Part shown: positions 43,006 to 63,140 of the stretch, piece after piece | How positions within the stretch are numbered: the stretch's first letter is position 1 | How the letters are laid out: each line of letters begins with the position of its first letter | NCBI RefSeq assembly: GCF_001677475.2 | Contig: NZ_CP015229.1 | DNA length: 64,000 bases | Reading direction: 5' to 3' (one strand) | Source of the DNA: Escherichia coli | GTDB lineage: Bacteria; Pseudomonadota; Gammaproteobacteria; Enterobacterales; Enterobacteriaceae | The notes under the pieces: generated by a model | The model's database searches: none | The model's input: only the letters and a program-made list of their open reading frames with translations | What the model was told of the DNA's origin: nothing | Program-made: the position numbers and the translations under genes

Positions 43006-43096
43006 TCTTTTCAACGCCTGGCACTGCCGGGCGTTGTTCTTTTTAACTTCAGGCAGGTTACAATAGTTTCCAGTAAGTATTCTGGAGGCTGCATCC

Positions 43097-44341: not shown

Positions 44342-44800
<459 letters not shown>

Positions 44801-44809
44801 GTGAAATGT

Positions 44810-44830
44810 GCCGGATGCATCACATCCGGC
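44810..44830. terminator. Bidirectional terminator hairpin between crl and phoE
   Basis: gccggatg-catcac-atccggc perfect stem. Confidence 0.6.
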
Positions 44831-44838
44831 AATAATCA

Positions 44839-45894: not shown

Positions 45895-45966
45895 TTTCAT
45901 TCCTGATTTTAATTAACGCGCGAATATTCAGCGGGAGAGTCCCGTTGAAAACAGGAAAGTTTTTAA

Positions 45967-45993
45967 CCTGAGATTGTTAAAGATATATTACAG
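45967..45993 (-). promoter_or_regulatory. Candidate Pho box (PhoB binding site) upstream of phoE
   Basis: Minus-strand ctgtaatatatctttaacaatctcagg resembles CTGTCAT-type Pho box repeats. Confidence 0.55.
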
Positions 45994-46181
45994 ATTAATA
46001 ATATTCTTAAAATGTGGTAATTTATTAAATCTGTAATAAAAGCGTAAACAACTGCCGCTAGGCTTGCTGATCCCGCGCAACAAAACGCCATGCTTTGCTC
46101 GCAGATGGTTGGCAACCGACGACAGTCCTGCTAAAACGTTCGTTTGATATCATTTTTCCTAAAATTGAATGGCAGAGAATC

Positions 46182-47285
46182 ATGAGTGACAGCCAGACGC
46201 TGGTGGTAAAACTCGGCACCAGTGTGCTAACAGGCGGATCGCGCCGCCTGAACCGTGCCCATATCGTTGAACTTGTTCGCCAGTGCGCGCAGTTACATGC
46301 CGCCGGGCATCGGATTGTTATTGTGACGTCGGGCGCGATCGCCGCCGGACGTGAGCACCTGGGTTACCCGGAACTGCCAGCGACTATCGCCTCGAAACAA
46401 CTGCTGGCGGCGGTAGGGCAGAGTCGACTGATTCAACTGTGGGAACAGCTGTTTTCGATTTATGGCATTCATGTCGGGCAAATGCTGCTGACCCGTGCTG
46501 ATATGGAAGACCGTGAACGCTTCCTGAACGCCCGCGACACCCTGCGTGCGTTGCTCGATAACAATATCGTTCCGGTAATCAATGAGAACGATGCTGTCGC
46601 TACTGCGGAGATTAAGGTCGGCGATAACGATAACCTTTCTGCGCTGGCGGCGATTCTGGCGGGTGCCGATAAACTGTTGCTGCTGACCGATCAAAAAGGT
46701 TTGTATACCGCTGACCCGCGCAGCAATCCGCAGGCAGAACTGATTAAAGATGTTTACGGCATTGATGACGCACTGCGCGCGATTGCCGGTGACAGCGTTT
46801 CAGGCCTCGGAACTGGCGGCATGAGTACCAAATTGCAGGCCGCAGACGTGGCTTGCCGTGCGGGTATCGACACCATTATTGCCGCGGGCAGCAAACCGGG
46901 CGTTATTGGTGATGTGATGGAAGGCATTTCCGTCGGTACGCTGTTCCATGCCCAGGCCACTCCGCTTGAAAACCGTAAACGCTGGATTTTCGGTGCGCCG
47001 CCTGCGGGTGAAATCACGGTAGATGAAGGGGCAACCGCCGCCATTCTTGAACGCGGCAGCTCCCTGTTGCCGAAAGGCATTAAAAGCGTGACTGGCAATT
47101 TCTCGCGTGGTGAAGTCATCCGCATTTGCAACCTCGAAGGCCGCGATATCGCCCACGGTGTCAGTCGTTACAACAGCGATGCATTACGCCGTATTGCCGG
47201 ACACCACTCGCAAGAAATTGATGCAATACTGGGATATGAATACGGCCCGGTTGCCGTTCACCGTGATGACATGATTACCCGTTAA
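46182..47285 (+). CDS. proB: Glutamate 5-kinase
   Basis: Start set to internal ATG ([19 protein letters not shown]...), 367 aa. Confidence 0.95.
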
Positions 47286-47296
47286 GGAGCAGGCCG

Positions 47297-48550
47297 ATGC
47301 TGGAACAAATGGGCATTGCCGCGAAGCAAGCCTCGTATAAATTAGCGCAACTCTCCAGCCGCGAAAAAAATCGCGTGCTGGAAAAAATCGCCGATGAACT
47401 GGAAGCACAAAGCGAAATCATCCTCAACGCTAACGCCCAGGATGTTGCAGACGCGCGTGCCAATGGCCTTAGCGAAGCGATGCTTGACCGTCTGGCACTG
47501 ACGCCCGCACGGTTGAAAGGCATTGCCGACGATGTGCGCCAGGTGTGCAACCTCGCCGATCCGGTGGGGCAGGTGATTGATGGTGGTGTGCTGGACAGCG
47601 GTCTGCGTCTGGAGCGTCGTCGCGTACCGCTGGGGGTGATTGGCGTGATTTATGAAGCTCGCCCGAACGTGACAGTTGATGTCGCTTCGCTGTGCCTGAA
47701 AACCGGTAACGCAGTGATCCTGCGCGGTGGCAAAGAAACCTGTCGCACTAACGCTGCAACGGTGGCGGTGATTCAGGACGCCCTGAAATCCTGCGATTTA
47801 CCGGCGGGTGCCGTGCAGGCGATTGATAATCCTGACCGTGCGCTGGTCAGTGAAATGCTGCGTATGGATAAATACATCGACATGTTGATCCCGCGCGGCG
47901 GGGCTGGTTTGCATAAACTGTGCCGCGAACAGTCGACGATCCCGGTGATCACTGGTGGTATAGGCGTATGCCATATTTACGTTGATGAAAGTGCAGAGAT
48001 CGCTGAAGCCCTGAAAGTCATCGTCAACGCGAAAACCCAGCGTCCGAGCACATGTAATACGGTTGAAACGTTGCTGGTAAATAAAAACATAGCAGATAGC
48101 TTCCTGCCCGCATTAAGCAAACAAATGGCGGAAAGCGGCGTGACATTACACGCAGATGCAGCTGCGCTGGCGCAGTTGCAGACAGGCCCCGCGAAGGTGG
48201 TGGCGGTTAAAGCCGAAGAGTATGACGATGAGTTTCTGTCATTAGATTTGAACGTCAAAATCGTCAGCGATCTTGACGATGCCATCGCCCATATTCGTGA
48301 ACACGGCACGCAACACTCCGATGCGATCCTGACCCGCGATATGCGCAACGCCCAGCGTTTTGTTAACGAAGTGGATTCGTCCGCTGTTTACGTTAACGCC
48401 TCTACGCGTTTTACCGACGGCGGCCAGTTTGGACTGGGTGCGGAAGTGGCGGTAAGCACACAAAAACTCCACGCGCGTGGCCCAATGGGGCTGGAAGCGC
48501 TGACCACTTACAAGTGGATCGGCATTGGTGATTACACCATTCGTGCGTAA
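47297..48550 (+). CDS. proA: Gamma-glutamyl phosphate reductase
   Basis: 417 aa aldehyde dehydrogenase-type. Confidence 0.95.
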
Positions 48551-48664
48551 ATAAAACCGGGTGATGCAAAACTAGCCATTTGATTCACAAGGCCATTGAC
48601 GCATCGCCCGGTTAGTTTTAACCTTGTCCACCGTGATTCACGTTCGTGAACATGTCCTTTCAGG

Positions 48665-48740
48665 GCCGATATAGCTCAGTTGGTAGAGCAGCGCATTCGT
48701 AATGCGAAGGTCGTAGGTTCGACTCCTATTATCGGCACCA
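48665..48740 (+). tRNA. thrW: tRNA-Thr (anticodon CGU)
   Basis: gccgatatagctcagttggtagagcagcgcattcgtaatgcgaaggtcgtaggttcgactcctattatcggcacca; cloverleaf with CGT anticodon and CCA end. Confidence 0.95.
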
Positions 48741-48754
48741 TTTAAATCAATAAG

Positions 48755-48960
48755 TTACACATCATTAGTACCTTCCTTATTTCTTGACTGGGACAAATTT
48801 GGGACCGATGGGTTCAGAATCGAGTCTATTTGCCGTGCGTGTTCGGTAAGGTGATTAGGTGCGAGGTGAGCATATCGACGAACCATTTCAAGAGTTTCCC
48901 ATCCTCCCATTTCTGTAAGTGCAAGAAGAGAAACACTGGACTGAACCAGCCTGCTTGCCT
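48755..48960 (-). pseudogene. Tyrosine recombinase/integrase remnant (C-terminal fragment only)
   Basis: ORF encodes ...[36 protein letters not shown] (integrase C-terminus with catalytic Tyr) but lacks upstream catalytic domain; abuts thrW 3' end. Confidence 0.7.
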
Positions 48961-49103
48961 TTGCTATCAAAGTACCTTGAGGACCAGATGATTTCTGGCG
49001 ATATTTACAGCGCGTCCGCAATGAGTTTTTCTCCGTGCCGCCAGTGACGTTCCCCGCTTTTTCAGTGCGGCGATAATATCAGCGGGATGCCAGTCCTGTT
49101 GTG

Positions 49104-49574
49104 TCATACAACCACCTCGCTGATAAATTTTACGCCGTCGGCGGTGCGCAGCCAGCGCGGGGCTTTGAGTCCTTCCATGAAATACCAGACCAGTTCACAC
49201 AACAGCCCGGTCAGGGTTTGTTCCGTTTTTGGTTCCGCCGGGCGTTCCAGCAGAAGCTGGAGTAGTGCGAGGCAGTATTCGCACAAGGAATCTGGTTCGG
49301 AAATAAAGTGCTCTGGTGTGGCGGGAAGGGTATCAACGGTCAGGCTTTCAATCAGATGCGGCGGGATGGGGTCGTGCAGCGTGGGGTGCAATAGCGCAAG
49401 AGCCGCGTGAAGCCGTCCGCAGAGCGCTAGCCGTAGCGCGGGATCGTCGGTTTCGATCAGGGTTTCGGCGAAGCGGGCGCAGTAATCGGCAAGGACAGTA
49501 AAATCCGTGGTGGCATTGAAGGGGGCGGACAGCAGATCGAGTAAATCGCAGTCAGGGGTGAGGGTTGTAGCCAT
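49104..49574 (-). CDS. Hypothetical protein (island-encoded, unknown function)
   Basis: 156 aa from ATG 49572-49574 with upstream aggag RBS; no recognisable motif. Confidence 0.5.
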   Translation of the reverse strand: MATTLTPDCDLLDLLSAPFNATTDFTVLADYCARFAETLIETDDPALRLALCGRLHAALALLHPTLHDPIPPHLIESLTVDTLPATPEHFISEPDSLCEYCLALLQLLLERPAEPKTEQTLTGLLCELVWYFMEGLKAPRWLRTADGVKFISEVVV

Positions 49575-49917
49575 AGGGCGTCTCCTGTAACGGTTTATTA
49601 TGTCCGCCACTAGAGAGGCTAATCTCATGGGGGGCGGAACCGGACGGGGTTAGCCTTACCGGCGTTACAGGAAACCGGCGCGTCTTGCGACGCCCCCGCC
49701 CGGCCCGCCATTGAGGTGTAGCCGAACGCACGACACAAAAAAGACGCTGGTGCGTCAAGTGTCGCCTGTAACGGTTTTCAGGAGGCTAATCCCGACGCCT
49801 GATTTTGCAGGCGCGGGAGAAAGATACTGCGATTGGTCATGAGTGGCAAGGGCTACATCCTGTTTACCGACATCTCACGCAAAAATACCCTGATTATTAA
49901 TAGCGAAAATCAGTTTC

Positions 49918-52900
49918 TTATTTTGGCGGTAGCTTTTTGCGGTTCTTTGCCAATTGGAATCCTTCAGGTAACGGTTTGAATTTATCGCCGCCTTTAGGCC
50001 AGCGTTTTGCCCTGCTCTGAAATGCCCTTAACGAGTCGATATCCAGTGTTGCAGCGATCACAAAGTCATTATCGCCGCCCTTCACACGAGCAATATCACG
50101 CATAAAGGGTTCTTTTGCCGGGGAACGTACGCGACTATCGCCGTATTTTCGGTTATTCACTAAAATGGTATAGGCATGAATATCCAGCGCTGCTGATTCA
50201 ATCAACGATGCAAACGTATCCAGATCTTTATTCCAGCTCAATACCATTAATGCATCGAGCGCGCCCTGAAAACGGATCCTCGCTTTACTATTCTGGAGTT
50301 CAGAGCAAATCATAACGCCAAAATTGACGCCGTGATGAATATATACCGGCTTACGTTGTTTAACATTAAGTGTCGAGTCCCAAGACTTACCATAAGTTGA
50401 AAATAATGCCTCATCTTCACCTACGGCGGGTTCCAGCTTGGGTTGCCATATTTTGACACTCGCTGGATAGCCGAGTCTGTTATCTGAAAGGACAAGTACG
50501 GCCTCACTCTTCAGTTGATTATCGCCTAAGTGGCGGTATTCTGTTCCCGCAATTAGACTGATACCCGCCGAACTCAAACGATCAGCAATACTGTTAACCC
50601 AGCGTAACGGGATTGAAAGCTCGGGGAATAAAACATAATCAGGTTTAGGAGATAGTTTCAATGTTGCATTAACCAGTTCAGAAATCCGCTGGTACCTTGA
50701 ACGGGACAAGTTAGATTTATTGCAGGCCATTTTAGCCCAGTCGTCTTCCTCTGTTTTAATGCTGGTTAGCGCAACGACAATTTTATGTTTCCTGTCAGTG
50801 CCAATATGAATGAATTTCTTAGGCCGAGCTTTTTTTGTCGCTTCATCTGAGTCCTGCTCCGATGCTAGTAACGTCGGTTTGATCCATACACCGCGTAATG
50901 CTTGAGTATATTTTGCCCAAACGGTGGACGGTCTCTCATCTGGTTTTTTGTCGGATGTAGAGGGTAATCCAACACATTCGGGGGCCAGTTCTGATATTTC
51001 AGCGGGAGTTAAAGGACGTGTAGGGAAAATGTAAGGTAGGTAACTTTCGTTCTTACGATTTCCTTTAGCCACTTTTTCCAGTCGGGTATTCTTGGTTGAT
51101 TTCAAAAATAGCTTAATAACGTCAATATCAATAAGCGATGAGTCCCTCATTAATTTCAGTATTTTAACTTCTTTTTTACGATCACGCTGATTAACAAGTT
51201 TTTCTGCCGACTGACTCTTTACGATCTGTTTATAAGGTTCCTTTGCTAAATCAGCTCGAGCTACCAATGGCGCTTTTAAATAAAAATCTGCTGAATCAAA
51301 GCGAAGATCCAGTAAATCCTTTAGATTTGTCAGACTTTGTGAAATATGATTAAAAAATGTATCCGCAAGGCACTCTTCTTTCTTTGAACGTTTATCAAGA
51401 AATAATCTGTCAGGACTGTAATATCGTGTCGCTGCATCAACAAATAGCCAGCTTAATGTGCCTTTTATACAGCGCCAAAGATCATTTACTGCTCGAGTTT
51501 TGCAACCATTTATAGTCACTTCCTTACCTGAAGTAATCACCGATGCCAACAGGTTGATGGACTCGTAAGCTTTAAGTACAATTTTTTCCGCGTGCTGCCA
51601 TTCATTCATACTGATAGCAAAGCCAAGCAGCCTTGGCAGATAACTAAAATGTGCAAATAGATTATCAGCCCTAAGAATATGGTTGTAGGCAAACTGATAA
51701 AACTCTTCCCGCTGTTCTTTCCATTCACTTGGAGACAGATCTCGTGCCAGTGTTTCAACGTAGCGTAATTGCAGTGACCAGCCCAAACGACGAATGGTTA
51801 ATCCATCCGCACGGCGCAGAGTATCGGCATTTTCACCTACACTACCGGCAGCGGAAAGGACTTTAGCTGCGGTGGAGTGTTCCAGTTGATCCGGTGAAGG
51901 CATCAAGCGGTGTTCACTAGAAAGCTCGTAGATCTCCTTTTCGATACTGTCGAGCAGATCTATTCCTGCCCTCCCTTGAAGCACGAAAAGTTTTTGCTTA
52001 TCGGATTGTAACTGGATGGTGGTCTTACCCTGGAAATGCTCGCCCTGCTGTATTTGCCATATTTGTTTTTTCTCGTTTTTCAGATAAACGCAATCATTGC
52101 CAAGCCTATCTTGCAGCAATAACATAAATTCGTGATTATTAGTAATTTTACCTGTATCGCGTATTACAAGGAACATATCATCGACATAACGACCGTAGTG
52201 AATTGGCGACAGTTTTTCAATGACTAATTTATCCCAATGGTGTAGCAATATATTGGAAATGATCCGACTGGCTGTTAATCCAATGACCAGACCACCATTA
52301 ATAACAGGTGTTTTGTACGCTATTTTTTTTCCAAATGCCGCTGCGCCGTCAGACCAGTGCTTTAAGAATACAGCTAACTGTGCAGTAAACGCTTTTTCAT
52401 GCTCAGTCAGTTTTATGTTTAGTGTGTTATAGAGATCATCAGAGGTTATAGCCAGTGGATCAATAAAATGATAGTAACTTTTTAAATCCAGTGAGGCGGC
52501 GATAATGTCACGATCTTTTTCCAACTCGTCACGTATAGCTTTTAAGCCATCACCACGCCATTTTTGGTAGGGCTGGAAATAGGGGCTAAAAGAACCCACG
52601 GCACTGATATGGAATGGATTATCCTGCTCATTGCTAAATAATTCATCATTACGAATACGTTTTAGCCGCGCGCCATAACAACAGTTGTCTAAGCTGGCAT
52701 CAAATTTATGCCCGACCATATTAATCCATAGTGCAGAGATAATGTGACTATCAACCGGGAAGTCACCAATAATACGAAACTCTGGTATCAGATCAAAATT
52801 ATTAAATAAATGGTCGGCTGCTCGTTTAGGATTAGAAAAGTGGACGTGTCCATTTTGGAATTCATGTTTTTTCTTTGTGGTTAATTTTTTCGGTAACAAA

Positions 52901-53127
52901 CGAAATTTGCCAATCAACTTCTTATTGCTACTGAATCCATCTTCGCTCTGCAAAATATCTAAGAGTTCTTGCAGGTTTTCAATTAATTCCTGCTCATACT
53001 CGGCAAATTTGATAGCAACAGGAAATGTATTCTCAAAGAAGCTATCGGCTTTGGCTTTCCGGTAAGCGACCAGAAGGTCTTCAATCGTCAGATCATCCCA
53101 GCCAGTGAAAGTTGCCTGATATGTCAT
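49918..53127 (-). CDS. Reverse transcriptase-nitrilase fusion protein (UG/Abi-type defence-associated RT architecture)
   Basis: 1069 aa; RT motifs LDLKSYYHFIDP, GGLVIGLTASRIISNILL, YGRYVDDMF; C-terminal CN-hydrolase signatures FPELSIP and GVMICSELQN; low-GC gene. Confidence 0.75.
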   Translation of the reverse strand: MTYQATFTGWDDLTIEDLLVAYRKAKADSFFENTFPVAIKFAEYEQELIENLQELLDILQSEDGFSSNKKLIGKFRLLPKKLTTKKKHEFQNGHVHFSNPKRAADHLFNNFDLIPEFRIIGDFPVDSHIISALWINMVGHKFDASLDNCCYGARLKRIRNDELFSNEQDNPFHISAVGSFSPYFQPYQKWRGDGLKAIRDELEKDRDIIAASLDLKSYYHFIDPLAITSDDLYNTLNIKLTEHEKAFTAQLAVFLKHWSDGAAAFGKKIAYKTPVINGGLVIGLTASRIISNILLHHWDKLVIEKLSPIHYGRYVDDMFLVIRDTGKITNNHEFMLLLQDRLGNDCVYLKNEKKQIWQIQQGEHFQGKTTIQLQSDKQKLFVLQGRAGIDLLDSIEKEIYELSSEHRLMPSPDQLEHSTAAKVLSAAGSVGENADTLRRADGLTIRRLGWSLQLRYVETLARDLSPSEWKEQREEFYQFAYNHILRADNLFAHFSYLPRLLGFAISMNEWQHAEKIVLKAYESINLLASVITSGKEVTINGCKTRAVNDLWRCIKGTLSWLFVDAATRYYSPDRLFLDKRSKKEECLADTFFNHISQSLTNLKDLLDLRFDSADFYLKAPLVARADLAKEPYKQIVKSQSAEKLVNQRDRKKEVKILKLMRDSSLIDIDVIKLFLKSTKNTRLEKVAKGNRKNESYLPYIFPTRPLTPAEISELAPECVGLPSTSDKKPDERPSTVWAKYTQALRGVWIKPTLLASEQDSDEATKKARPKKFIHIGTDRKHKIVVALTSIKTEEDDWAKMACNKSNLSRSRYQRISELVNATLKLSPKPDYVLFPELSIPLRWVNSIADRLSSAGISLIAGTEYRHLGDNQLKSEAVLVLSDNRLGYPASVKIWQPKLEPAVGEDEALFSTYGKSWDSTLNVKQRKPVYIHHGVNFGVMICSELQNSKARIRFQGALDALMVLSWNKDLDTFASLIESAALDIHAYTILVNNRKYGDSRVRSPAKEPFMRDIARVKGGDNDFVIAATLDIDSLRAFQSRAKRWPKGGDKFKPLPEGFQLAKNRKKLPPK

Positions 53128-53330
53128 GCGTTATCGTCCTTAGATTAAAGTCTGTACAGAATTAGCCAGCCGTTTCATGCCCGAAGGAGGTGCTCTTGAC
53201 ACCAGTAATCCATCAGTGAGGCTGGCAATAATTTTGATTTGTATCCATGTTACACGCTCCCCGCAACCAGTCCGAGCATATATTTGTCACATTTTTCCCG
53301 AAAGTGATTAAGTTTGAATTTTTTGTTTAA

Positions 53331-53349
53331 TGTCGATTTTTAGTCGACA
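53331..53349. promoter_or_regulatory. Inverted repeat tgtcga-N7-tcgaca in divergent promoter region (candidate operator)
   Basis: Palindrome ~75 bp upstream of AbiEi-like gene; AbiEi antitoxins autoregulate via promoter inverted repeats. Confidence 0.35.
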
Positions 53350-53422
53350 AAATGAGGAATAAGTAAATTATTTCTTGCTGTGGCGTATCCCTGAACCTAC
53401 ACTGGTTTAAATATTTGTACTA

Positions 53423-54226
53423 ATGTCTATTCAGGGGCGACATTTGCCAAATTATCTAAACTGGCTGATGCAGAATACGCTACCCGGTCAGGTGCTGCTC
53501 CAGTCATGGCTTACCCGCAACGGCGTAGATCGTAAGCTCTCTTACCTCTATGTCCAGAATGGCTGGCTCAGGCGGATCGCTCACGGCGTATACTGCCGGA
53601 CGGGTCGTGAACCGGACTGGGTGGACGCGGTTTACTGCCTGCAAACACAGTGGGAAAAGCCAGTACGGGTGGCGGGGCTAACCAGCCTTGCGCTTCAGGG
53701 CCATGCGCACTATACCGAACCGGGTAAGCCGCAAATCTGGCTCGCGCTTCCGGCTTACGTCAAACTGCCGGGATGGTTTGCTGCCTTCGAACAATCTGCA
53801 ACATTTATCACGCTGTATACATCGGGCCTTACCGTTGATGTCACGTCATTTACTACGGAACTGAAAATTGGCGACCGGCAGTTAGCAGGCAGTGCCCCGG
53901 AACTGGCCGCGTATGAGATCGCCTGCGGCGTTCCTTCGTTGATATCGTTCGAACATGCCGATGCTCTGTTTCAGGGGATGAATCTTCTCAGCCCGCGTAA
54001 ATTGCAGGCGTTACTCTGCGCCAGTCATTCGGTTAAAACCAACCGGGTGATGCTTTACCTTGCCCGGCGTAATGGACACCCTTATTTTCAGTATATTGAT
54101 CAAAGCGGTATAGAAACAGGTACGGGAAAGCGGCAAATCATACCCGGCGGCTGGCTGGAGCCGGATTATCAAATTACTGTTCCACGCGAATTTAAACCGG
54201 AAGGAGTCGAAGATGGATCTGCGTGA
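53423..54226 (+). CDS. AbiEi-like antitoxin / transcriptional regulator (type IV TA)
   Basis: 267 aa; N-terminal AbiEi-type wHTH-like region (LTRNGVDRKLSYLYVQNGWLRRIAHGVYCRTG); overlaps downstream NTase gene by 14 bp. Confidence 0.6.
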   Translation: MSIQGRHLPNYLNWLMQNTLPGQVLLQSWLTRNGVDRKLSYLYVQNGWLRRIAHGVYCRTGREPDWVDAVYCLQTQWEKPVRVAGLTSLALQGHAHYTEPGKPQIWLALPAYVKLPGWFAAFEQSATFITLYTSGLTVDVTSFTTELKIGDRQLAGSAPELAAYEIACGVPSLISFEHADALFQGMNLLSPRKLQALLCASHSVKTNRVMLYLARRNGHPYFQYIDQSGIETGTGKRQIIPGGWLEPDYQITVPREFKPEGVEDGSA

Positions 54227-55133
54227 TAGCTATACCCGGCAGGTCAAACTGTTGATGGCCGCTCTGCCGCATGTGGCGAAGGAGTCCTGTTTCGCGTTGA
54301 AAGGCGGCACGGCAATCAATTTGTTTGTGCAGGATTTTCCCCGTCTGTCGGTGGATATCGATCTGGCGTATAAGACTTTTGCGGATCGCGATACCGATTT
54401 GACGGCGATCAACGACGCTTTGAAGAGAATTACTGCATCGCTGAACAGTAAACCGGGGATTACCGCGATTCGGCAGGAAAATAAAACGGATGAAAAGCGC
54501 ATCATTGTGAATACGGCTGATGCCCAGATTAAGATCGAGGTTAGTCCGGTCTGGCGTGGGCTGTTGTTGCCTCCGGCAGAAATGTCGGTGTGCGAACGTG
54601 TGGAAATGGAGTATGGCTTCACCACTATGAGTGTCGTTTCGCTGGCGGATCTTTATGGCGGTAAAATCTGCGCAGCGCTTGATCGTCAGCACCCGCGCGA
54701 TCTGTTTGATGTGCTGAATATGCTGGAGAAACCGGGACTGATGCGGGAGATCTTTGACGGTTTTCTTTGTTATCTGGCAGGCCATCCCCGCCCCATTGCC
54801 GAGTTGCTGGCCCCAAACTGGGATACAGAGCGGATCACGACGCTGTATGCCCAGGAATTTTCGGGGATGACTCAGCAGGAAACGTCGCTGGAATCGCTGC
54901 TGTCAGTAACGACTTTGCTGCCGCAGGCGTTGAAGTCACATCTTACGGATCTGGATCGCGAGTTCTTGCTCAGTTTTAAGCAAAACAGCCCTGACTGGTC
55001 GCGGTATCGCTATCCTGAAATTCAGCATCTTCCGGCTATTCGCTGGAAGCAACGCAATCTGGCGGTGCTTAAAGATAAAAATCCGGCGAAGTATGTGGCG
55101 GCGGTGAATAAGCTAGAGAGGGTGCTGGAGTAA
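54213..55133 (+). CDS. AbiEii-like nucleotidyltransferase toxin (DUF1814-type)
   Basis: 306 aa; NTase motif LKGGTAINLF ... RLSVDIDLAY (hGG...DhD). Confidence 0.65.
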   Translation: MDLRDSYTRQVKLLMAALPHVAKESCFALKGGTAINLFVQDFPRLSVDIDLAYKTFADRDTDLTAINDALKRITASLNSKPGITAIRQENKTDEKRIIVNTADAQIKIEVSPVWRGLLLPPAEMSVCERVEMEYGFTTMSVVSLADLYGGKICAALDRQHPRDLFDVLNMLEKPGLMREIFDGFLCYLAGHPRPIAELLAPNWDTERITTLYAQEFSGMTQQETSLESLLSVTTLLPQALKSHLTDLDREFLLSFKQNSPDWSRYRYPEIQHLPAIRWKQRNLAVLKDKNPAKYVAAVNKLERVLE

Positions 55134-55538
55134 TATTCTTAGCGCTGTTCAGGGACTCTGAATTGGGCCATGATGCTTTGGTTATATGAATAACTTCGTG
55201 GCCATAACTCAAACATATTCATTTAATTCAATACATAGCACCATCGAGTAAGAGATCGCTGAGTCATTAGACGATCTCTGCTCGTGGAAATACGAAACTA
55301 TCTCTTTCCAAAGCTGATCTGAATAACATTATCTGGAGCATCATTATTAGACCTGATGATCTCATGCTCAATAAAATCCCCCCATTTCAAAAAAAGATCC
55401 CGTAATTTTTCCGCCTGCTGCCCGACCTGATAAGTTCTGATTAATCTGTCTTTCGGAACATGATTCAACAGAAGTTCTATAAGCCGTTCTGGCGCATCCA
55501 GATACTCAGCACAGCCTGTAGAGTGCAGGTGCAGACAT

Positions 55539-56438
55539 TTAAGCCAATTGCTGCCGCCATTCCTTGACGTGGTCAATCAGGGCGCGGAGCTTTGGTGCAA
55601 TATTGCGACGCTGTGGGAAATACAGATAGAAGCCCGGAAATTGTGGAAGAAAGTCATCAAGCAGCGATACAAGCTTACCGCTTTCAATATATGGCCTGAA
55701 CGTTTCCTGAGTGGCAATTGTTATTCCTCCGCCGGCAAGAGCCAGCCTCAACATCAGACGCAGATCATTCGTCGTAATCTGCGGTTCAATCGCAAGGTCG
55801 AAAGCTCTACCGTTTTCTTCAAATGGCCAGCGATAAGGAGCAACCTCCGGGGACTGACGCCAGCCGATACACTTATGATTCACAAGTTCACGCGGGTGAA
55901 CAGGTGTGCTGTTGGCTGCGAGATAGGAGGGAGAGGCAACGACCATTTCACGCTGCCTGGCGGTAAGGGGAACAGCAATCATGTCTTTTTCAATGACCTC
56001 TCCGAGCCTTACGCCAGCATCGTAACCTGCGGCAACGATATCGAATTCCTCATCCGTGACAACAATATCAAGCGTAACGGCTGGATTGGCAGCTGCAAAC
56101 GAAGCGATTAGCGGACCTGAAAGAAATTCTTCTGCTATCGACGTCACCGCGATTCTGAGATGTCCACGTGGTACATGGTCAGAAACCATCTCTTCGAACG
56201 CTGCCTCAATACCGGATAAAGGTAATGACAACGATTTATGCAGCCGTTCTCCCGCTTCCGTCAAATTAACTGAGCGCGTGGTCCGCATTACAAGCATTGT
56301 CCCGAATGCATCTTCAAGGCGTCTTATTCCCTGACTGACCGCTGAACGGGTAACGCCCAGTCGTGCGGCGGCTTTACTGAAATTACTCTCTTCTGCTACC
56401 GCGATAAAAATGGGTAAAAGATTAAGATCGATTTTCAT
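55539..56438 (-). CDS. LysR-family transcriptional regulator
   Basis: 299 aa; N-terminal HTH (FSKAAARLGVTRSAVSQGIRRLE) and LysR substrate-binding domain. Confidence 0.9.
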   Translation of the reverse strand: MKIDLNLLPIFIAVAEESNFSKAAARLGVTRSAVSQGIRRLEDAFGTMLVMRTTRSVNLTEAGERLHKSLSLPLSGIEAAFEEMVSDHVPRGHLRIAVTSIAEEFLSGPLIASFAAANPAVTLDIVVTDEEFDIVAAGYDAGVRLGEVIEKDMIAVPLTARQREMVVASPSYLAANSTPVHPRELVNHKCIGWRQSPEVAPYRWPFEENGRAFDLAIEPQITTNDLRLMLRLALAGGGITIATQETFRPYIESGKLVSLLDDFLPQFPGFYLYFPQRRNIAPKLRALIDHVKEWRQQLA

Positions 56439-56536
56439 TGTTTAATGCCGCTAACCACTGAGTACATTGAAAGCAGGATACTGGAACCAATCATAAAGTT
56501 CTATTATCTCTCCGAACACATTTGAAGGAGAACGTA

Positions 56537-57259
56537 ATGGATAAGGTCATATTAATCACCGGCGCATCAAGTGGTATTGGGGAAGGTATTGCCAGAGAAC
56601 TGGGAACGACAGGTGCGAAGGTTTTACTGGGCGCACGCAGAGTTGAGCGTATCGAAGCCATTGCAACCGAAATCTGCCTCGCAGGAGGAATTGCTAAAGC
56701 GCGGGAGTTGGATGTCACAGACCGACAGTCCATGGCCGATTTCGTGCAAGCAGCGCTGGATAACTGGGGGCGAGTTGATGTTCTTATCAATAATGCGGGC
56801 GTTATGCCGCTTTCACCGCTTGCAGCAGGAAAACAGGATGAATGGGAGCTCACTATTGACGTGAATATCAAAGGTGTACTGTGGGGAATTGGCGCTGTAC
56901 TTCCGGTGATGGAAGCACAGGGTTCCGGTCAGATAATCAATCTTGGTTCTATTGGTGCCCTTTCTGTTGTGCCCACAGGCGCAGTCTATTGTGCATCAAA
57001 ATTTGCAGTACGGGCTATTTCTGATGGCTTACGGCAGGAAAGCTCGAAAATCCGTGTGACCTGCGTAAATCCTGGCGTTGTCGAAAGTGAACTGGCTTCA
57101 ACCATTACCCATGTGGAAACCATGAAGGCAATGGACGCCTACCGTTCTGTTGCACTTCAACCCGCGGATATTGCCCGTGCTGTAAGGCATATTATTGAAT
57201 CTCCCGAAAGCGTTGATACAACCGAAATTACCATCAGACCCACTGCATCTGCAAACTGA
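56537..57259 (+). CDS. Short-chain dehydrogenase/reductase (SDR)
   Basis: TGASSGIG Rossmann motif; catalytic YxxxK (YCASK); divergent from LysR gene. Confidence 0.9.
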   Translation: MDKVILITGASSGIGEGIARELGTTGAKVLLGARRVERIEAIATEICLAGGIAKARELDVTDRQSMADFVQAALDNWGRVDVLINNAGVMPLSPLAAGKQDEWELTIDVNIKGVLWGIGAVLPVMEAQGSGQIINLGSIGALSVVPTGAVYCASKFAVRAISDGLRQESSKIRVTCVNPGVVESELASTITHVETMKAMDAYRSVALQPADIARAVRHIIESPESVDTTEITIRPTASAN

Positions 57260-57470
57260 AGAATAACTTTTACATTCACGTTTTATTAAATATGTCAGAA
57301 GGAAAATTTATATCCACCTGTTTTGCATAGCAAGATGCATTATGTATTGCTCACCCCGAAGGAGATGAAGTTTTAATTACAGAAGGAGTATTTTCTCTTG
57401 GAGTAAATATGGCTCATGTTTAATGCCTATGTATATAAAACTCATCCTCTCAATTGTCAGGAGAATTAAC

Positions 57471-57701
57471 ATGAATACTATCTGTTCTTTAATTGTTGTG
57501 GTTACACTGTCTTTATTATCATTCAGTAGCGTCGCCAAAACGATTACTGCCGTCGGTTCAACCATCGACAGCACTGAAAAAGAAATTTCTTTACAGGCAG
57601 AAAAACAAGGAAAATCATATAAAATTCTGGGCGCATTTTTCAAGAACAGAGTTTATATTATAGCAAAGTTAACACCAGTCAGTAAAAATGATGCTTCATA
57701 A
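57471..57701 (+). CDS. Small secreted protein, DUF1471 (YdgH/BhsA)-like
   Basis: 76 aa with signal peptide; RBS caggag before ATG 57471. Confidence 0.55.
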   Translation: MNTICSLIVVVTLSLLSFSSVAKTITAVGSTIDSTEKEISLQAEKQGKSYKILGAFFKNRVYIIAKLTPVSKNDAS

Positions 57702-57752
57702 GGCTCATGATATAATTTTTAAGACATGATCAAGAAGCACGTTTATTTATTC

Positions 57753-57880
57753 ATATACTCTAAATAATTCAAGTTGCAGGAAGGCGACAAGTGAGTGAAT
57801 CCCCAGGAGCTTACAAAAGTAAGTGACTGGGGTGAATGAACGCAGTCGCAGCACATGCAACTTGAAGTATGACGAGTATA
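57753..57880. repeat. ERIC (IRU) element, second copy
   Basis: gtgaatccccaggagcttac and aagtaagtgactggggtgaatg; ~90% identical to copy at 38882. Confidence 0.85.
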
Positions 57881-58527
57881 ATTATCATTATTATGGCCAT
57901 GGAATACCTGACAAATGACGCTACCCCAACCTTCTGTACCAGTCGTTCTGCTAATTCTACCGATGCTTCGGTCTGGAGTGGTAGAGTAATATTAGACACA
58001 GTTTTATTTTCTCTCTTTTTCGAGGGCTGTATATGAACAGGAAGAATACATCCCTAAGCGGTTAATGCTGGCGTAATCAATAGACCAGCATTAATCACAG
58101 ATGATTATCAATCAGACAGAAATGGTTAAATCGTCGAATTCATAATTAATACTTTTTGTAACGCCGCTGAATAGCTTGAAAAGGATGTATATTTTAAATA
58201 TCAGTGAAGTGAACAGTTTATTGCCGTTATTAATAGAAATGGAGGAATAAATACGCGTATTCTACTATTGCAACAAAAACAACGATATTGATCATTTTTC
58301 ATAATGAAGTAACCTGACAGATATAAAAATGTTGATTGAGGCTAAATGCCCGGATGAAGGTTGTCGAGGGAGCCAGGTTGTTTTTTCTTTTGGATGATCT
58401 CCATTGCTGGATAGTCCCCTTGTACAGATAAGTCTGCTCTTTCTCGCTCAAAGCAGACCCTGGAATTGAACGCAGAGTGACTACCTGACACAATATTGCA
58501 CCGTGAAGAGTCGGTCGTTGTTAACGT

Positions 58528-59412
58528 TCAGATTTTCAATGTATCAATGACCATCCGCAGAGCGGGGGAGACGTTGCGATGAGGGTAATAGAGAAACAAT
58601 CCCTCCATTCGCAGGCTGTAACGCTGCAACACTCTGATAAGCTTACCGTGTTCTAAATCATCCGCGACCAGTTCAACAGGAACATAGGCCAATCCGAGGC
58701 CCAGCCGGGCTGCTTCTGCTTCCATATAGCTGTCGGATAAGGCCCATTGCCCTTCAGGGCGATGAGTGATTTTTTTATCATCCTGATTGAGTTCCCACTG
58801 GTATACGCTGCCGTCGGCAAACTGATAGGCGATACAGGGATGCGCCTTTAAATCCGCCGGGGTTTGCGGAAAACCATAGCGACGAAAATGTTCCGGAGTC
58901 CCCACAATTGCCATCTCCATATCGGGCGTGATGCGTACCGCGACCATGCCCTGACCGACTTCAGGCCCCAGGCGGACACCTGCATCGAATCTTTCCTCGA
59001 TGATATCGACGAACCGGCTCTCATTTATCAGTTCAAGCCGGATATCAGGATATCGCTGTTTAAATACCGCCAGCTTTGGCAGCAGGCATTTATCAATCGC
59101 GTGCTGGCTGGCATTGATACGCACCGTGCCGGAGGGCGTCTCTCGATAGTGCGCCAGCGTGGCAAGCCCAAGATCTAACATTTCAAATCCAGATGCCGTC
59201 TTCTGGTAGAGCTGCTCGCCTGCTTGTGTCAGCGACAGTTTACGCGTGGTGCGCACTAGCAGCTGGACGCCCAGCCTTTCTTCAAGCTCGCGAACAGAAC
59301 GGCTGACTCCTGACTGAGCAAGACCCAGCCGCTGAGCTGCTGCGGTAAAGCTGCCTTCCCGCACCACCTGCATAAACAGGTACAGCTCGTTGTAGTTCTC
59401 CCTTTTCGCCAT
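58528..59412 (-). CDS. LysR-family transcriptional regulator
   Basis: 294 aa; HTH FTAAAQRLGLAQSGVSRSVRELE. Confidence 0.9.
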   Translation of the reverse strand: MAKRENYNELYLFMQVVREGSFTAAAQRLGLAQSGVSRSVRELEERLGVQLLVRTTRKLSLTQAGEQLYQKTASGFEMLDLGLATLAHYRETPSGTVRINASQHAIDKCLLPKLAVFKQRYPDIRLELINESRFVDIIEERFDAGVRLGPEVGQGMVAVRITPDMEMAIVGTPEHFRRYGFPQTPADLKAHPCIAYQFADGSVYQWELNQDDKKITHRPEGQWALSDSYMEAEAARLGLGLAYVPVELVADDLEHGKLIRVLQRYSLRMEGLFLYYPHRNVSPALRMVIDTLKI

Positions 59413-59598
59413 TGAAACATCCCCCCTTCATGCCGGCAATCTCCGCATTAATTTATAACAATATGGTATTAATCTTAGCATTAATCGCCCCCTAATCAGC
59501 ACTAATTCTGCTCATTATAATGACCCCATCAAAGCAAAGCACCGCAGCGTTGTCCGTCGGAAACCTGTATCTCTCTGTTGTTTTTTATGGGGATTTTT

Positions 59599-60735
59599 AT
59601 GAAAGCCTTCACCCGAACGCTAAAAACCGCGATGCCGACCATGTTGCTTTTCGCATCATTAAGTGGAGTCACGACAATGAGTTATGCTGATTCAACCAAT
59701 CCTAATGCCCCTGTGTCCATGACAGATAAATGGGATAAAACGTTCGCCGAGAGCCAGAAAGTCGATCACCGTAAAGTCTCGTTCCCGAACCGATATGGCA
59801 TCACCTTAGTGGGCGATCTTTACCTGCCTAAAGACCGTGGCGATCGCAAACTGGCGGCGATTGCGGTCAGTGGGCCATTTGGCGCGGTGAAAGAGCAATC
59901 CAGCGGCTTGTATGCGCAGACGCTGGCGGAACGAGGGTTTGTTACCCTGGCGTTCGATCCTTCTTACACCGGGGAAAGCGGCGGCTATCCGCGAAACGTC
60001 GCCTCACCGGATATCAACACTGAAGATTTCAGCGCGGCGGTGGATTTCTTAGGGCTGCAAAAAGAGGTAGATCGCAACCGTATCGGGCTGCTCGGTATTT
60101 GTGGCTGGGGCGGCATGGCGCTGAACGACGCGGCGATGGATACCCGCGTTAAAGCGGTAGCTACCAGCGTGATGTATGACATGAGCCGGGCGATGGGTCA
60201 TGGTGTGGGGGATGGCAAAGACCGTTATTCTATCGCCGACCGTCGTGCTGTTCTGCAATATCTGAATGAACAGCGCCGGAAGGATGCGCAGAGCGGAACG
60301 TTCGCTCACGGTGGTCATGATATTAATGTCGATAGCAACGGCAAGGTCAGTGCTGGCGAGCGCATTCTGCCAGAAACGCTGCCGGCAAATCCTCATCCGG
60401 TACTGAAAGAGTTCTTTGACTACTATCGCATGCCGCGCGGCTTCCACGAACGTTCCGTTAACTCTACCGGGGCGTGGACGGCAACGATGCCGCTGTCATT
60501 TATGAATATGCCGCTGTTGAGCTACGCCAGTGAAATCACCATTCCGACGCTGATTGTGACCGGTGAGAAAGCACATTCACGTTATTTTGCTGAAGATGCT
60601 TACAAGGCGGTTGGCAGTAAAGACAAAGAGCTGGTGGTGGTACCAGGGGCAAATCACGTGGACCTGTACGATAACGTGGCCGGAAAAATACCTTTCGCGA
60701 AGTTCGAACAATTTTTCCAGACCAAACTGAAATAA
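59599..60735 (+). CDS. Secreted alpha/beta hydrolase (dienelactone hydrolase-like, Cys nucleophile)
   Basis: Signal peptide; nucleophile elbow GICGWGG; divergent from LysR gene. Confidence 0.7.
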   Translation: MKAFTRTLKTAMPTMLLFASLSGVTTMSYADSTNPNAPVSMTDKWDKTFAESQKVDHRKVSFPNRYGITLVGDLYLPKDRGDRKLAAIAVSGPFGAVKEQSSGLYAQTLAERGFVTLAFDPSYTGESGGYPRNVASPDINTEDFSAAVDFLGLQKEVDRNRIGLLGICGWGGMALNDAAMDTRVKAVATSVMYDMSRAMGHGVGDGKDRYSIADRRAVLQYLNEQRRKDAQSGTFAHGGHDINVDSNGKVSAGERILPETLPANPHPVLKEFFDYYRMPRGFHERSVNSTGAWTATMPLSFMNMPLLSYASEITIPTLIVTGEKAHSRYFAEDAYKAVGSKDKELVVVPGANHVDLYDNVAGKIPFAKFEQFFQTKLK

Positions 60736-60810
60736 AACCTCTCCTGAATTGATGCAAAGCCACCGGTCTATGGCAGGTGGCTTTTATCCTGATCTTTGTG
60801 AAATTTCACT

Positions 60811-62004
60811 ATGTCGACACTAAGCCAAACACTATCACCTCATCATCAGCGCGCATACTGGGGCGGTATTTTTGCCATGACCCTGTGCGTGTTTGTGCTG
60901 ATTGCTTCTGAATTTATGCCCGTCAGCCTGCTCACGCCGATTACCCGCGATTTAGGCGTGACGGAGGGGCTTGCAGGGCAGGGGATTGCTATCTCCGGCG
61001 CGCTGGCGGTTCTGACCAGCCTGACGCTTTCAACGCTAGCTGGAAAGATGAATCGTAAGTTCCTGCTGCTGGGGATGACGGTTCTGATGGCCGTATCGGG
61101 GCTTATTATTGCGCTGGCTTCCAGTTATCTGATGTATATGGTCGGTCGTGCGATGATTGGGGTGGCCATTGGCGGTTTTTGGTCGATGTCAGCGGCAACG
61201 GCGATTCGTCTGGTGCCGCAGCATCAGGTTACGCGTGCGCTGGCGATTTTCAACGCCGGTAATGCGCTGGCGACGGTCGTGGCCGCGCCGCTGGGAAGCT
61301 ATCTGGGGGCCACGGTCGGATGGCGAGGCGCTTTCTTGTGCCTGGTGCCTATCGCGGTTGTCGCCTTTATCTGGCAGTACATCAGCCTGCCCAGTATGGA
61401 TGCGAATAAAAGCCACACGTCAGCTGGCGATGTATTCCGCATACTTAGCCGCCGCGTGATTGCGGTTGGCATGCTGGCCTGCGGCCTGTTTTTCATGGGG
61501 CAGTTTGCACTATTCACCTATGTGCGCCCGTTTCTGGAGTCGGTGACACGGGTTAATTCCTTAGGCTTGTCGTTGATTTTGCTGATTATCGGCGTGGCCG
61601 GTTTTATTGGCACGCTGGTTGTTTCGGCATTTCTCAACAGAAAATTCTACCCCACGCTGATGGCCATACCCGGACTGATGGCCGTCATTGCTATCGGTCT
61701 GATGCTTACCGGGCATCACGTCTGGACGGTCTCGCTGCTGTTAGGACTCTGGGGCATGCTGGCCACCGCCGCGCCAACCGGATGGTGGACATGGATTGCG
61801 CGTACGTTGCCTGACAACGCCGAAGCCGGAGGCGGCCTCATGGTCGCGGTGATTCAGCTCGCCATCGCCCTTGGATCAACGGCAGGAGGCATCGTGTTTG
61901 ACCGCCTTGGCTGGCAGAGTACGTTTGCCATGAGTAGCGTGCTGCTCCTTTGCGCGGGCGTACTGACCTTTGTTACCGCACGCCAGAAGGCCGGTGCGTT
62001 TTAG
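60811..62004 (+). CDS. MFS transporter
   Basis: 397 aa, 12 predicted TM segments. Confidence 0.85.
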   Translation: MSTLSQTLSPHHQRAYWGGIFAMTLCVFVLIASEFMPVSLLTPITRDLGVTEGLAGQGIAISGALAVLTSLTLSTLAGKMNRKFLLLGMTVLMAVSGLIIALASSYLMYMVGRAMIGVAIGGFWSMSAATAIRLVPQHQVTRALAIFNAGNALATVVAAPLGSYLGATVGWRGAFLCLVPIAVVAFIWQYISLPSMDANKSHTSAGDVFRILSRRVIAVGMLACGLFFMGQFALFTYVRPFLESVTRVNSLGLSLILLIIGVAGFIGTLVVSAFLNRKFYPTLMAIPGLMAVIAIGLMLTGHHVWTVSLLLGLWGMLATAAPTGWWTWIARTLPDNAEAGGGLMVAVIQLAIALGSTAGGIVFDRLGWQSTFAMSSVLLLCAGVLTFVTARQKAGAF

Positions 62005-62183
62005 TCCGGCGAGGGGGCGCGTTGCTGAATAAGTTACACACGGCGATGAGCGCCCACTATGGGTTGGGCGCTCTTTTAAACGATTTAGGTGATTTTCTAA
62101 AACGGCTACTGCAAATTTTTCTCTTAATTTATGGGTATTTCCCCCGGAGGCGAGAAAGCGCTCTCCACGCCCGGCCGCAAGGA

Positions 62184-63140
62184 TCAGGACGACGGGGGCA
62201 GGCATGAATCCTCCTCCAGATGGAGACGTACAGAGGCAACTTCTGCCAGCACAGAGAGGGCCAGTGTATGCGCATCCCGGGCTTTGGGGAATATCCCGAT
62301 GGGTGCCCGGATTTGCGCTGTCTCCTCCCTGGACCATCCCAGCTCGTGGAGCTTTTGCAGACGTAAAGTGTGGGTTCGATAGCTGCCCAATGCGCCGAGA
62401 TAAAAGGGTTTTGCCTCTCGCGCGGCCTGCAACACTGGCAGCTCCCGGTTGAGATCATGGCACAGCAAAATGACCGCCGTATCGGTATCGATCTGAGCGC
62501 TGGCTGAGGCCGGAAAAAGATCGAAGATATGGTTGTCATAGCCTGTGGCTGCTGCAAGACTCGCGGTTGCCTGCGCCTCAAGAGAACCTCCGTAAATCAA
62601 CAGCCTGACGCATGGCCTGAACCCTACCTCAAAGCCATTGAGATTCCAGCCCGTTCGGGTTTGCGTGGGCAGGCACACCAGCGATTGTGCTTGCGGATCA
62701 TAGCGCAGCCCCGCCGGTTTTCTCTGTTCCAGGCGGTTCAGCACGGCGAGCAGAGGCTGTGCCGTGCGTAGTTTATGGAGCGTCAGCGTGATCCCACCGC
62801 CGCAGGGCAGAACGATGTCAAACCACGGCGAACCTTCGCCATAGCGAATTTCGCGATCGCAGCCTGAGCCCATCATCTCCAGCGCTTCAAAAGCGGCAGC
62901 GGCCTCCACGCAGCCGCCAGAGACAAAACCGCAGTAACGACCATCTTCGCGCACCACCATCTGCGCCCCGAGCGGGCGCGCCGCGCCGCCGCGTATCTCC
63001 ACCAGCGTCACCAGCACCGCTCCTTTACCGGACATTAGCGCCTCTACGGCGAAGCGCAGAATGGTCCGGTGGTCATCGGTGAGAAACGCCTGCTCTGGCT
63101 TATGCCAGTGTTCGTCTTTGTCAAAAAGCGGGTATGACAT
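62184..63140 (-). CDS. paoD: XdhC/CoxI-family molybdenum cofactor insertion chaperone (PaoD-like)
   Basis: 318 aa; XdhC N-terminal and Rossmann-like domains (LLIYGGS). Confidence 0.75.
   Translation of the reverse strand: MSYPLFDKDEHWHKPEQAFLTDDHRTILRFAVEALMSGKGAVLVTLVEIRGGAARPLGAQMVVREDGRYCGFVSGGCVEAAAAFEALEMMGSGCDREIRYGEGSPWFDIVLPCGGGITLTLHKLRTAQPLLAVLNRLEQRKPAGLRYDPQAQSLVCLPTQTRTGWNLNGFEVGFRPCVRLLIYGGSLEAQATASLAAATGYDNHIFDLFPASASAQIDTDTAVILLCHDLNRELPVLQAAREAKPFYLGALGSYRTHTLRLQKLHELGWSREETAQIRAPIGIFPKARDAHTLALSVLAEVASVRLHLEEDSCLPPSS

Follow-up and report, generated by a model that had tools for sequence, protein, structure and literature searches.

O-island 9 next to the pao genes of Escherichia coli: two LysR-enzyme modules whose distribution favours repeated loss

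Results

A stretch of 64,000 nucleotides of Escherichia coli DNA (contig NZ_CP015229.1, assembly GCF_001677475.2), hereafter called the window, was investigated with regard to positions 55539-62004, where two gene modules adjoin the pao aldehyde oxidoreductase genes. Gene positions were taken from an open reading frame (ORF) map of the window, and protein domains were assigned with Pfam. Module 1 contains a LysR gene (LysR #1, ortholog of z0342; 55539-56438, minus strand, 299 amino acids (aa)) with the domains HTH_1 and LysR_substrate, a divergent regulatory spacer of 98 bp (56439-56536), the gene of a short-chain dehydrogenase/reductase (SDR; z0343 ortholog, 56537-57259, plus strand, 240 aa; adh_short, E=5e-54) and the gene of a small protein with a predicted Sec export signal (probably z0344; 57471-57701, plus strand, 76-aa precursor, about 54 aa mature). 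Module 2 contains a second LysR gene with the same two domains (LysR #2, ortholog of OvrB (Z0346); 58528-59412, minus strand, 294 aa), a divergent regulatory region with blocks conserved across genera (59413-59598), the gene of a predicted exported alpha/beta-hydrolase of the PA2218/YcjY family (z0347 ortholog; 59599-60735, plus strand, 378-aa precursor) and the gene of a NepI-like DHA1 transporter of the major facilitator superfamily (MFS; z0348 ortholog, 60811-62004, plus strand, 397 aa; MFS_1). Beyond the transporter gene lies paoD (62184-63140, minus strand) with XdhC domains. Both LysR proteins reached E<=1e-21 for HTH_1 and for LysR_substrate alike and have the layout of LysR-type transcriptional regulators (LTTRs) of about 300 aa. 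An earlier sequence-only reading of this DNA had described one LysR gene as divergent from the SDR and the small protein and the other as divergent from the hydrolase and the transporter; ORF map and Pfam agree with this arrangement for both modules.

O-island 9 (OI-9) of enterohaemorrhagic E. coli (EHEC) O157:H7 EDL933 comprises z0342-z0348 and 6132 bp (Liu et al. 2019, PMC6768210). In O157:H7 strain 86-24, which served as O157 reference for gene order and protein identity, the same genes adjoin paoD in the same order and orientation. The OI-9 proteins of the window are 95-99% identical to those of this strain, and LysR #2 shares 98.3% amino acid identity over its full length with the syntenic protein at the z0346 position. 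The seven-gene order z0342-z0348 (LysR, SDR, two hypotheticals, LysR, hydrolase, MFS) was found between the thrW-side island and paoD. The interval absent from K-12-type genomes (55878-62128) has 6251 bp, or about 6125 bp without an inserted enterobacterial repetitive intergenic consensus (ERIC) element, and this matches the published size of OI-9. Gene order, protein identity of 95-99% and gap size thus identify the interval 55539-62004 as OI-9, already described, with gene content and the role of OvrB in virulence already known. Three ORFs of the gap between the modules, 57811-57999 (minus), 57869-58036 (plus) and 58299-58493 (minus), were considered as z0345 and rejected because of stops or frameshifts in other strains.

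OvrB is Z0346, encoded by the LysR gene ahead of the hydrolase and MFS genes. It binds the LEE1 promoter of the enterocyte effacement locus (LEE), as detected by electrophoretic mobility shift assay (EMSA) as well as by chromatin immunoprecipitation with quantitative PCR (ChIP-qPCR), and activates ler. The effect on LEE1/ler was shown for O157, O55:H7 and O145:H28, and adherence as well as mouse colonisation require OvrB (PMC6768210). Two independent acquisitions were suggested for OI-9 in the same paper, in which neither a recognition motif nor an inducer of OvrB is given (PMC6768210). In a review of 2024, further roles of OvrB were described as still unclear (PMC10877973).

Carriage was counted over 5426 complete E. 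coli genomes. The full region was present in 384/5426 genomes, module 1 in 383/5426 and module 2 in 912/5426; with the ERIC-free O157 sequence as query, 429 genomes had the full region. The sequence-only reading had called the modules accessory, and this label holds: only 7-17% of the genomes carry the region, which is far from universal conservation. Carriage of the two modules was strictly nested, and in an even-step sampling of genomes the K-12-type junction looked like the majority state. K-12-type genomes (locus L003) align with the window at 55522-55877 and then again from 62129, with an overlap of 5 bp at the break. Their remnant of 339 bp corresponds to the last 113 codons of LysR #1 (55539-55877), joined to the flank of paoD. 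It is annotated as a LysR substrate-binding-domain pseudogene without N-terminus and is identical with yagP, which by this alignment is the stump of the z0342 ortholog. As the stump of LysR #1 abuts paoD, only a deletion can yield the K-12-type junction. Positions 55771-57942 are deleted in strain FCI48 and positions 55135-58065 in strain ETEC4068. Together with the K-12 type, at least three distinct deletion junctions were found. Non-carriers show truncated genes and not the intact empty site expected for an island. No mobility genes were found in the ORF map within 55539-62004, and no integrase, att repeat or insertion sequence (IS) bounds either module.

The divergence of the modules was compared with that of their flanks. 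The modules share 97.6-99.3% identity with other E. coli, and the MFS gene 95.8-96.9% at the DNA level. For paoD/paoC the identity was 96.4-98.4%, and for crl-proA no complete E. coli genome exceeded 98.2%.

The left edge of module 1 was defined with an assembly labelled Escherichia fergusonii (L092). This assembly has the order gpt-frsA-crl-phoE-proB-proA, directly followed by LysR #1, the SDR gene, the small gene and ykgR. It aligns to the window at 42754-48758 and picks up again at 55524, with no DNA between the proA side and module 1. The tRNA-Thr(CGT) gene thrW is located at 48665-48740. The comparison indicates that 48759-55523 is a separate island inserted at thrW and that module 1 begins at the old junction, as part of the chromosomal backbone directly beside thrW/attR. 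The island at 48759-55523 encodes a defence reverse transcriptase of 1069 aa (49918-53127, minus strand; PADLOC RT_UG5-nitrilase/DRT, i.e. defence-associated reverse transcriptase (DRT), 1032 bits) and an AbiEi/AbiEii pair (53423-55133), and it carries an integrase remnant (55298-55576, minus strand). It is thus a defence island directly abutting OI-9. On the other side of the locus, paoC of strain 100117 is directly followed by betA/betB (L096 11093-14988). Such an order implies that a large segment beyond pao was deleted and is a further sign of a neighbourhood prone to deletions.

The spacer between the modules had been described in the sequence-only reading as an AT-rich stretch at 57700-58520 with an ERIC element and no ORF. 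The GC content was 0.34-0.39 across 57200-58400, the ERIC element was recovered, and the gap ORFs of 55-64 aa, including the one of 64 aa within 58299-58527, carry stops or frameshifts in other strains. The description therefore stands in essence, except that a ykgR pseudogene remnant of 21 C-terminal codons is annotated at 58230-58298 (minus strand) by the Prokaryotic Genome Annotation Pipeline (PGAP). Between this remnant and LysR #2, positions 58299-58527 form a non-coding spacer according to the homology comparison. The ERIC element (57754-57880, about 126 bp) was located with two queries, which we take to be the sequences of the primers ERIC2 and ERIC1R. They match back-to-back at 57795-57838 with two and one mismatches, respectively (0 expected by chance), and an outer inverted repeat of 25 nt spans 57754-57880. 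The only Rfam match in the region, to the repeat-type model V_AS5 of 129 nt, is full-length (57753-57876) but below the threshold. The copy is absent from other full-length E. coli loci (L001, L002) and from the outgroup loci, including L092. The empty site reads TTCA-TA-ATTATC, which means that a TA duplication flanks the element. The filled junction was shared by none of the 5426 complete E. coli genomes; half-element matches were found in 1452 genomes. The ERIC insertion is lineage-specific. A second copy was observed in the window at about 38923-38966, with one mismatch to ERIC2 and three to ERIC1R.

Homology to the outgroup loci stops at 58298, inside ykgR, and two of these loci (L092, L093) carry intact YkgR. 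For 58299-58442 no counterpart was found in the outgroup loci L092-L094 or in Kluyvera (L006), and the homology of Kluyvera to module 2 begins at 58443. Ordinary E. coli has an intact ykgR beyond ecp-ykgL-ykgOM (e.g. L097 7049-7150). Carriers of the region have a direct repeat of 117 bp from the 3' part of ykgR on both sides of module 2-pao-ecp (about 17-20 kb). In the KTE114-type loci and the loci labelled E. fergusonii, module 1 is directly followed by intact ykgR. The repeat points either to an old insertion into E. coli or, in the other lineages, to a deletion mediated by the repeat.

Both modules were also found in other genomes. Module 1 with the same spacer of 98 bp is present in a Pantoea chromosome that lacks the small gene. 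In Klebsiella P2-like prophages it is cargo between replication and packaging genes, and on a 186-kb E. coli plasmid it lies beside the copper-resistance genes pco/sil and an integrase (prophage and plasmid loci: L088/L089 3003-5543 and L090/L091 4003-6525). Compared with the window, these copies have identities of 87-89% for LysR #1, 90-91% for the SDR and 58% for the small protein. The prophage and plasmid copies come with a gene for an Atu4866 domain, which is absent from the window. For module 2, the statements on organisms outside E. coli refer to the matches listed. LysR and hydrolase, usually followed by the MFS gene, were detected in Kluyvera, Enterobacter, Hafnia, 'Escherichia sp. ESNIH1' and Aeromonas, the latter with 77% identity for LysR #2. 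The DNA homology of Kluyvera is 91.5% over 58443-62021, the exact limits of the cassette. For hydrolase and LysR #2 the identity to Kluyvera is 92.5-92.8% for DNA and 97.1-97.6% for protein, and the higher protein identity indicates purifying selection on both. Only a match of 60-80% identity to module 2 was found in 27 E. coli genomes. In strain S115, which was inspected (about 78%), a divergent second copy of the three genes of module 2 lies inside an Ag43/AlpA-type island. The KTE114-type lineage of Escherichia has no module 2 between module 1 and its ykgR. Two modules with separate histories, as implied by the sequence-only reading, are thus in accordance with these findings, since elsewhere either one can stand without the other, in the form of a compact cassette carried by a mobile element or located at a different site. 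A functional tie of module 2 to the pao genes was considered and rejected, because module 2 never adjoins pao outside E. coli among the matches listed.

The regulatory regions of both modules are conserved. In the spacer of module 2, some blocks stay unchanged across the genera from E. coli to Aeromonas, in contrast to their surroundings. These are ATTTATAACAATATGGTATTAAT (59451-59473), which contains ATA-N9-TAT (59455-59469), CTAATCAGCAC (59481-59491) and TATAAT (59516-59521), the latter with a poor -35 region. The three blocks are candidates for a recognition site, an activation site and an activator-dependent promoter. The spacer of module 1 has 92% column identity across Pantoea, the Klebsiella prophage and the plasmid. 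It is 100% identical to that of outgroup locus L093, although the genes flanking that locus reach only 92-95% identity. It contains the dyad TTA-N7-TAA (T-N11-A; 56442-56454) as candidate site, a promoter-like sequence TTGAAA-16-AATCAT (56467-56494) from a consensus scan and a Shine-Dalgarno sequence GAAGGAG. Control of both modules by their LysR proteins, as proposed in the sequence-only reading, fits these comparative footprints at both divergent promoters.

The hydrolase was aligned with PA2218 (2HDW; E=3e-123) and with E. coli YcjY (5XB6; E=5e-44). Its cysteine aligns with the nucleophilic serine (G-L-S-M-G-G) of the serine hydrolase 8B4U and with the cysteine of YcjY. C168 (G-I-C-G-[W/F]-G-G) and H353 (A-x-H-x-D-L-Y-D) are invariant in 80/80 hydrolase homologs from many phyla; K98-E99-Q100, D120 and H326-S327 are among the further residues invariant in these homologs. 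The predicted signal peptide MKAFTRTLKTAMPTMLLFASLSGVTTMSYA ends with ...SYA and is followed by DSTNP. Most homologs carry Sec, Tat (RRxxLK) or lipoprotein signals. According to these features the protein is an exported, periplasmic alpha/beta-hydrolase of the PA2218/YcjY family with a predicted Cys-His active site. The secreted hydrolase with cysteine nucleophile (GICGWGG) of the sequence-only reading is thereby supported by the alignment of the cysteine with the nucleophilic serine, by its invariance and by the export signals. With Pfam DLH (PF01738) 21.2 bits were reached (cutoff 21), no stretch being significant alone, and with a PETase-like family 35.6 bits (cutoff 28). The PA2218 family (L013-L085) shows identities of 53-62% across Alphaproteobacteria, Bacteroidota, Firmicutes, Campylobacterota and Gastranaerophilales, and of 43-55% to a protein of a Methanobacterium metagenome-assembled genome; so much conservation is unusual for an exported enzyme that is uncharacterised. 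The genes found most often beside the family are LysR genes (31 of about 75 loci). Other recurrent neighbours are cyclophilin-like proteins, hexapeptide acetyltransferases, cupins, flavodoxin-like proteins, aldo-keto reductases and SDRs, which suggests a detoxification or redox flavour and not a pathway. A NepI-like MFS gene adjoins the hydrolase in 12 of about 75 loci, and this linkage also exists in Kluyvera, Hafnia and Enterobacter cloacae. In the literature on YcjY, PA2218 and yagP nothing was found on function; in a machine-learning paper on O157, YcjY is a feature label only. The transporter reached 292 bits with the NepI model NF007578 of NCBIfam, below the equivalog cutoff of 584 bits, and is best described as a NepI paralog. 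Hydrolase and MFS genes are separated by 75 bp with no predicted terminator between them and probably form a two-gene operon.

The SDR contains the motifs TGASSGIG, NNAG and YCASK of the classical SDRs. Arg-Arg after beta2 suggests the use of NADP(H). The closest structure is the uncharacterised 3TFO (E=3e-122), followed by clavaldehyde dehydrogenase 2JAH (2e-45), and no equivalog cutoff of NCBIfam was reached. The enzyme is most likely a carbonyl or aldehyde reductase. In the prophage and plasmid copies, homologs of the small protein with 58% identity come after the SDR, and they begin with the same Met. With YdgH_BhsA-like (PF07338) of Pfam it reached 15.1 bits (cutoff 27, E=0.024) and with BhsA of NCBIfam 21.9 bits (cutoff 90). 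No match was found in a PDB sequence search, and one homolog is named BhsA by JGI. Of the small secreted 'DUF1471-like' protein proposed in the sequence-only reading, the predicted Sec export was retained, but the resemblance to DUF1471 is weak and below threshold.

Some gene starts differ from the database records. The SDR starts at ATG 56537, in agreement with PGAP and every homolog, and the small gene at ATG 57471, where its homologs begin. The hydrolase starts at ATG 59599, which is invariant in an alignment of seven genera from E. coli to Aeromonas, and the residues N-terminal to the PGAP start are conserved at the protein level. For the second copy in strain S115 (L098 6052-7188), PGAP gives the full-length hydrolase (378 aa) and MFS protein (397 aa). 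Most E. coli RefSeq/PGAP records have a hydrolase of 352 aa and an MFS protein of 375 aa (L001 8350-9408, L002 8032-9090). By this comparison the usual model of 352 aa cuts away the signal peptide and that of 375 aa the N-terminus of the transporter. The GC content was 0.50 for LysR #1 and SDR, 0.53-0.58 for module 2 and 0.34 for the small gene. Thus the module genes are host-like (0.50-0.58), and only the small gene and the spacer are AT-rich.

Discussion

The retained stump of LysR #1, the three deletion junctions, the nested carriage and the flank-like divergence favour repeated deletion, and not two insertions, as the cause of presence and absence in E. coli. We infer that the whole segment was at this site early in E. 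coli and was later lost repeatedly, including in the K-12 lineage. In general, we consider it likely that OI-9 lies on the chromosomal backbone between the thrW junction and paoD, that it consists of two LysR-enzyme modules under native LysR control, and that it was lost repeatedly. Some observations weigh against this view. The left edge of module 2 with its ykgR remnant is an old rearrangement scar, and module 2 may have been inserted anciently together with pao-ecp. Regarding regulation, the consensus scan for promoters and terminators was not above the shuffled expectation (11 vs 8.5 and 8 vs 6.7), so that the promoter calls draw solely on conservation. The promoters tested with OvrB were LEE promoters and the z0347 promoter was not among them, and neither an adherence nor a LEE phenotype resulted when z0342-45, z0347 and z0348 were deleted singly (PMC6768210). 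This null phenotype says nothing either way on a metabolic role of these genes. For the catalytic acid of the hydrolase there are two candidates, D194 (99%) and E323 (93%), neither of which is singled out.

The authors of the OvrB paper (PMC6768210) and the sequence-only reading both proposed that two cassettes, in the latter case catabolic or detoxification cassettes, were acquired horizontally and independently, so that the patchy distribution would reflect gain. Several results agree with this proposal. Module 1 is portable, as cargo of P2-like prophages and beside pco/sil on the 186-kb plasmid, and it occurs without module 2 in the KTE114-type lineage. Module 2 is found in the Ag43/AlpA island of S115 and at non-pao loci of other genera, its homology in Kluyvera is confined to the exact cassette limits 58443-62021, and the truncated ykgR between the modules is a scar of rearrangement. 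Carriage in only 7-17% of the genomes would also be expected after gain. However, the LysR #1 fragment at the K-12-type junction is the product of deletion only, three different deletion junctions were found, and carriage is strictly nested. Furthermore, neither module is bounded by an integrase, att repeat or IS at this site, their divergence equals that of the flanking core genes, and the gene GC of 0.50-0.58 is host-like. We therefore regard independent gain at this site as rather unlikely. Separate histories of the modules remain well founded by their occurrence alone elsewhere. Distinct origins in deep time are thus a reasonable part of the earlier proposal, but they would not explain the present distribution, which is better explained by deletion.

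Two further explanations concern the function of the segment. OvrB could essentially be a dedicated virulence regulator of LEE1, with hydrolase and transporter as separately regulated bystanders. This agrees with its binding to the LEE1 promoter in EMSA and ChIP-qPCR, with its requirement for adherence and mouse colonisation, and with the lack of such a phenotype after deletion of z0347 or z0348 (PMC6768210). Nevertheless, the LysR-hydrolase pair and its footprint are kept in Kluyvera, Hafnia and Aeromonas, where LEE would not be expected. Carriers of module 2 (912 genomes of human, pig, chicken and water origin) go far beyond the sampled serotypes O157 and O145 in number and diversity, and LysR is the dominant neighbour of the hydrolase family across phyla. 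A dedicated LEE regulator is thus improbable. Alternatively, the segment could be a decaying remnant without function that is heading for loss, as might be concluded from the repeated deletion in most lineages, from the ykgR pseudogene and ERIC insertion in the spacer, and from the MFS gene, which evolves faster than its neighbours (95.8-96.9% DNA identity). Against decay, the six ORFs are all intact in the window as well as in the inspected carriers, protein identity to Kluyvera is far above DNA identity, and conservation is higher in the regulatory spacers than in the coding DNA. OvrB moreover has a shown phenotype (PMC6768210). Decay is very improbable.

The conserved spacers point to the following mode of control by the native regulators. 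Each LysR regulator would bind a T-N11-A-type site in its own short divergent spacer and, on binding of a small-molecule co-inducer, would activate the promoter of the adjacent enzyme gene. The promoter of module 2 would be of the classical LTTR layout, its recognition site lying near -65, its activation site covering the weak -35 region and its -10 region being good. In LEE-positive strains OvrB additionally binds the LEE1 promoter and raises ler, as shown by Liu et al. (PMC6768210). As the footprint conserved across genera is typical of LysR control, the hydrolase-MFS operon is probably the native target of OvrB. It is a tentative extension of this, to which we give less than even weight, that OvrB is natively a ligand-gated activator of the operon of periplasmic Cys-hydrolase and MFS transporter and that activation of LEE1 was co-opted later. 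If this is true, the small molecule handled by the PA2218-family hydrolase (a gut ester, lactone or thioester) would be a virulence cue. It would also be the first physiological handle on the very widespread, uncharacterised family of exported, LysR-linked thiol hydrolases of Proteobacteria, Bacteroidota, Firmicutes and Melainabacteria.

The region is a catalogued O-island with a regulator already tied to EHEC virulence, and hence does not represent a novel type of system. What is added here is incremental. The evidence favours repeated loss of OI-9, against the published view of two gains, and the pseudogene yagP of K-12 can be traced to the z0342 ortholog, of which it is the stump. The z0347-z0348 promoter (59451-59521) is a candidate native operator and target of OvrB and would offer a natural route to its inducer. 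In addition, the hydrolase is predicted to be an exported enzyme with a Cys-His active site, and the starts of hydrolase and MFS gene in most E. coli records, which cut the signal peptide and the N-terminus, respectively, can be corrected.

The components of both modules were compared with known systems. The small protein resembles the periplasmic stress proteins BhsA/YdgH/McbA (DUF1471) in having a signal peptide and a mature domain of about 55 aa, with weak similarity over most of the domain, but it is below every curated DUF1471/BhsA threshold. The SDR has the same cofactor and catalytic motifs as classical SDRs like 3TFO and clavaldehyde dehydrogenase. The transporter is of similar length as NepI, a DHA1 efflux pump for purine ribonucleosides, and can be aligned with it over the full length (13-388 to 15-389). 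PA2218 of Pseudomonas aeruginosa (2HDW, a structural-genomics entry) belongs to the same family as the hydrolase over the full length, with GICGWGGMALN, KEQ, AHSRYF and HVDLYD conserved. It comes from another organism. An analogous pair of a LysR regulator divergent from an alpha/beta-hydrolase is ycjZ(pgrR)/ycjY of K-12 (PMC5934670). YcjY belongs to the same superfamily and has the same G-I-C cysteine at the nucleophile elbow. In contrast to the hydrolase of module 2, YcjY (306 aa) has no N-terminal export signal, as the alignment starts with its residue 4 at query residue 65 of the 385-aa ORF, and it is part of a peptidoglycan-recycling regulon (ycjY-ymjDC-mpaA) without MFS partner. The closest known system is OI-9 of O157:H7 itself. 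The copy of the window differs from it by the additional ERIC insertion of 126 bp and by LysR #2, which is called with 294 aa here and 300 aa there; moreover, it abuts the thrW island with DRT reverse transcriptase and AbiE, whereas O157 has prophage genes at this place. Order, orientation, position adjacent to paoD and size are the same in both copies.

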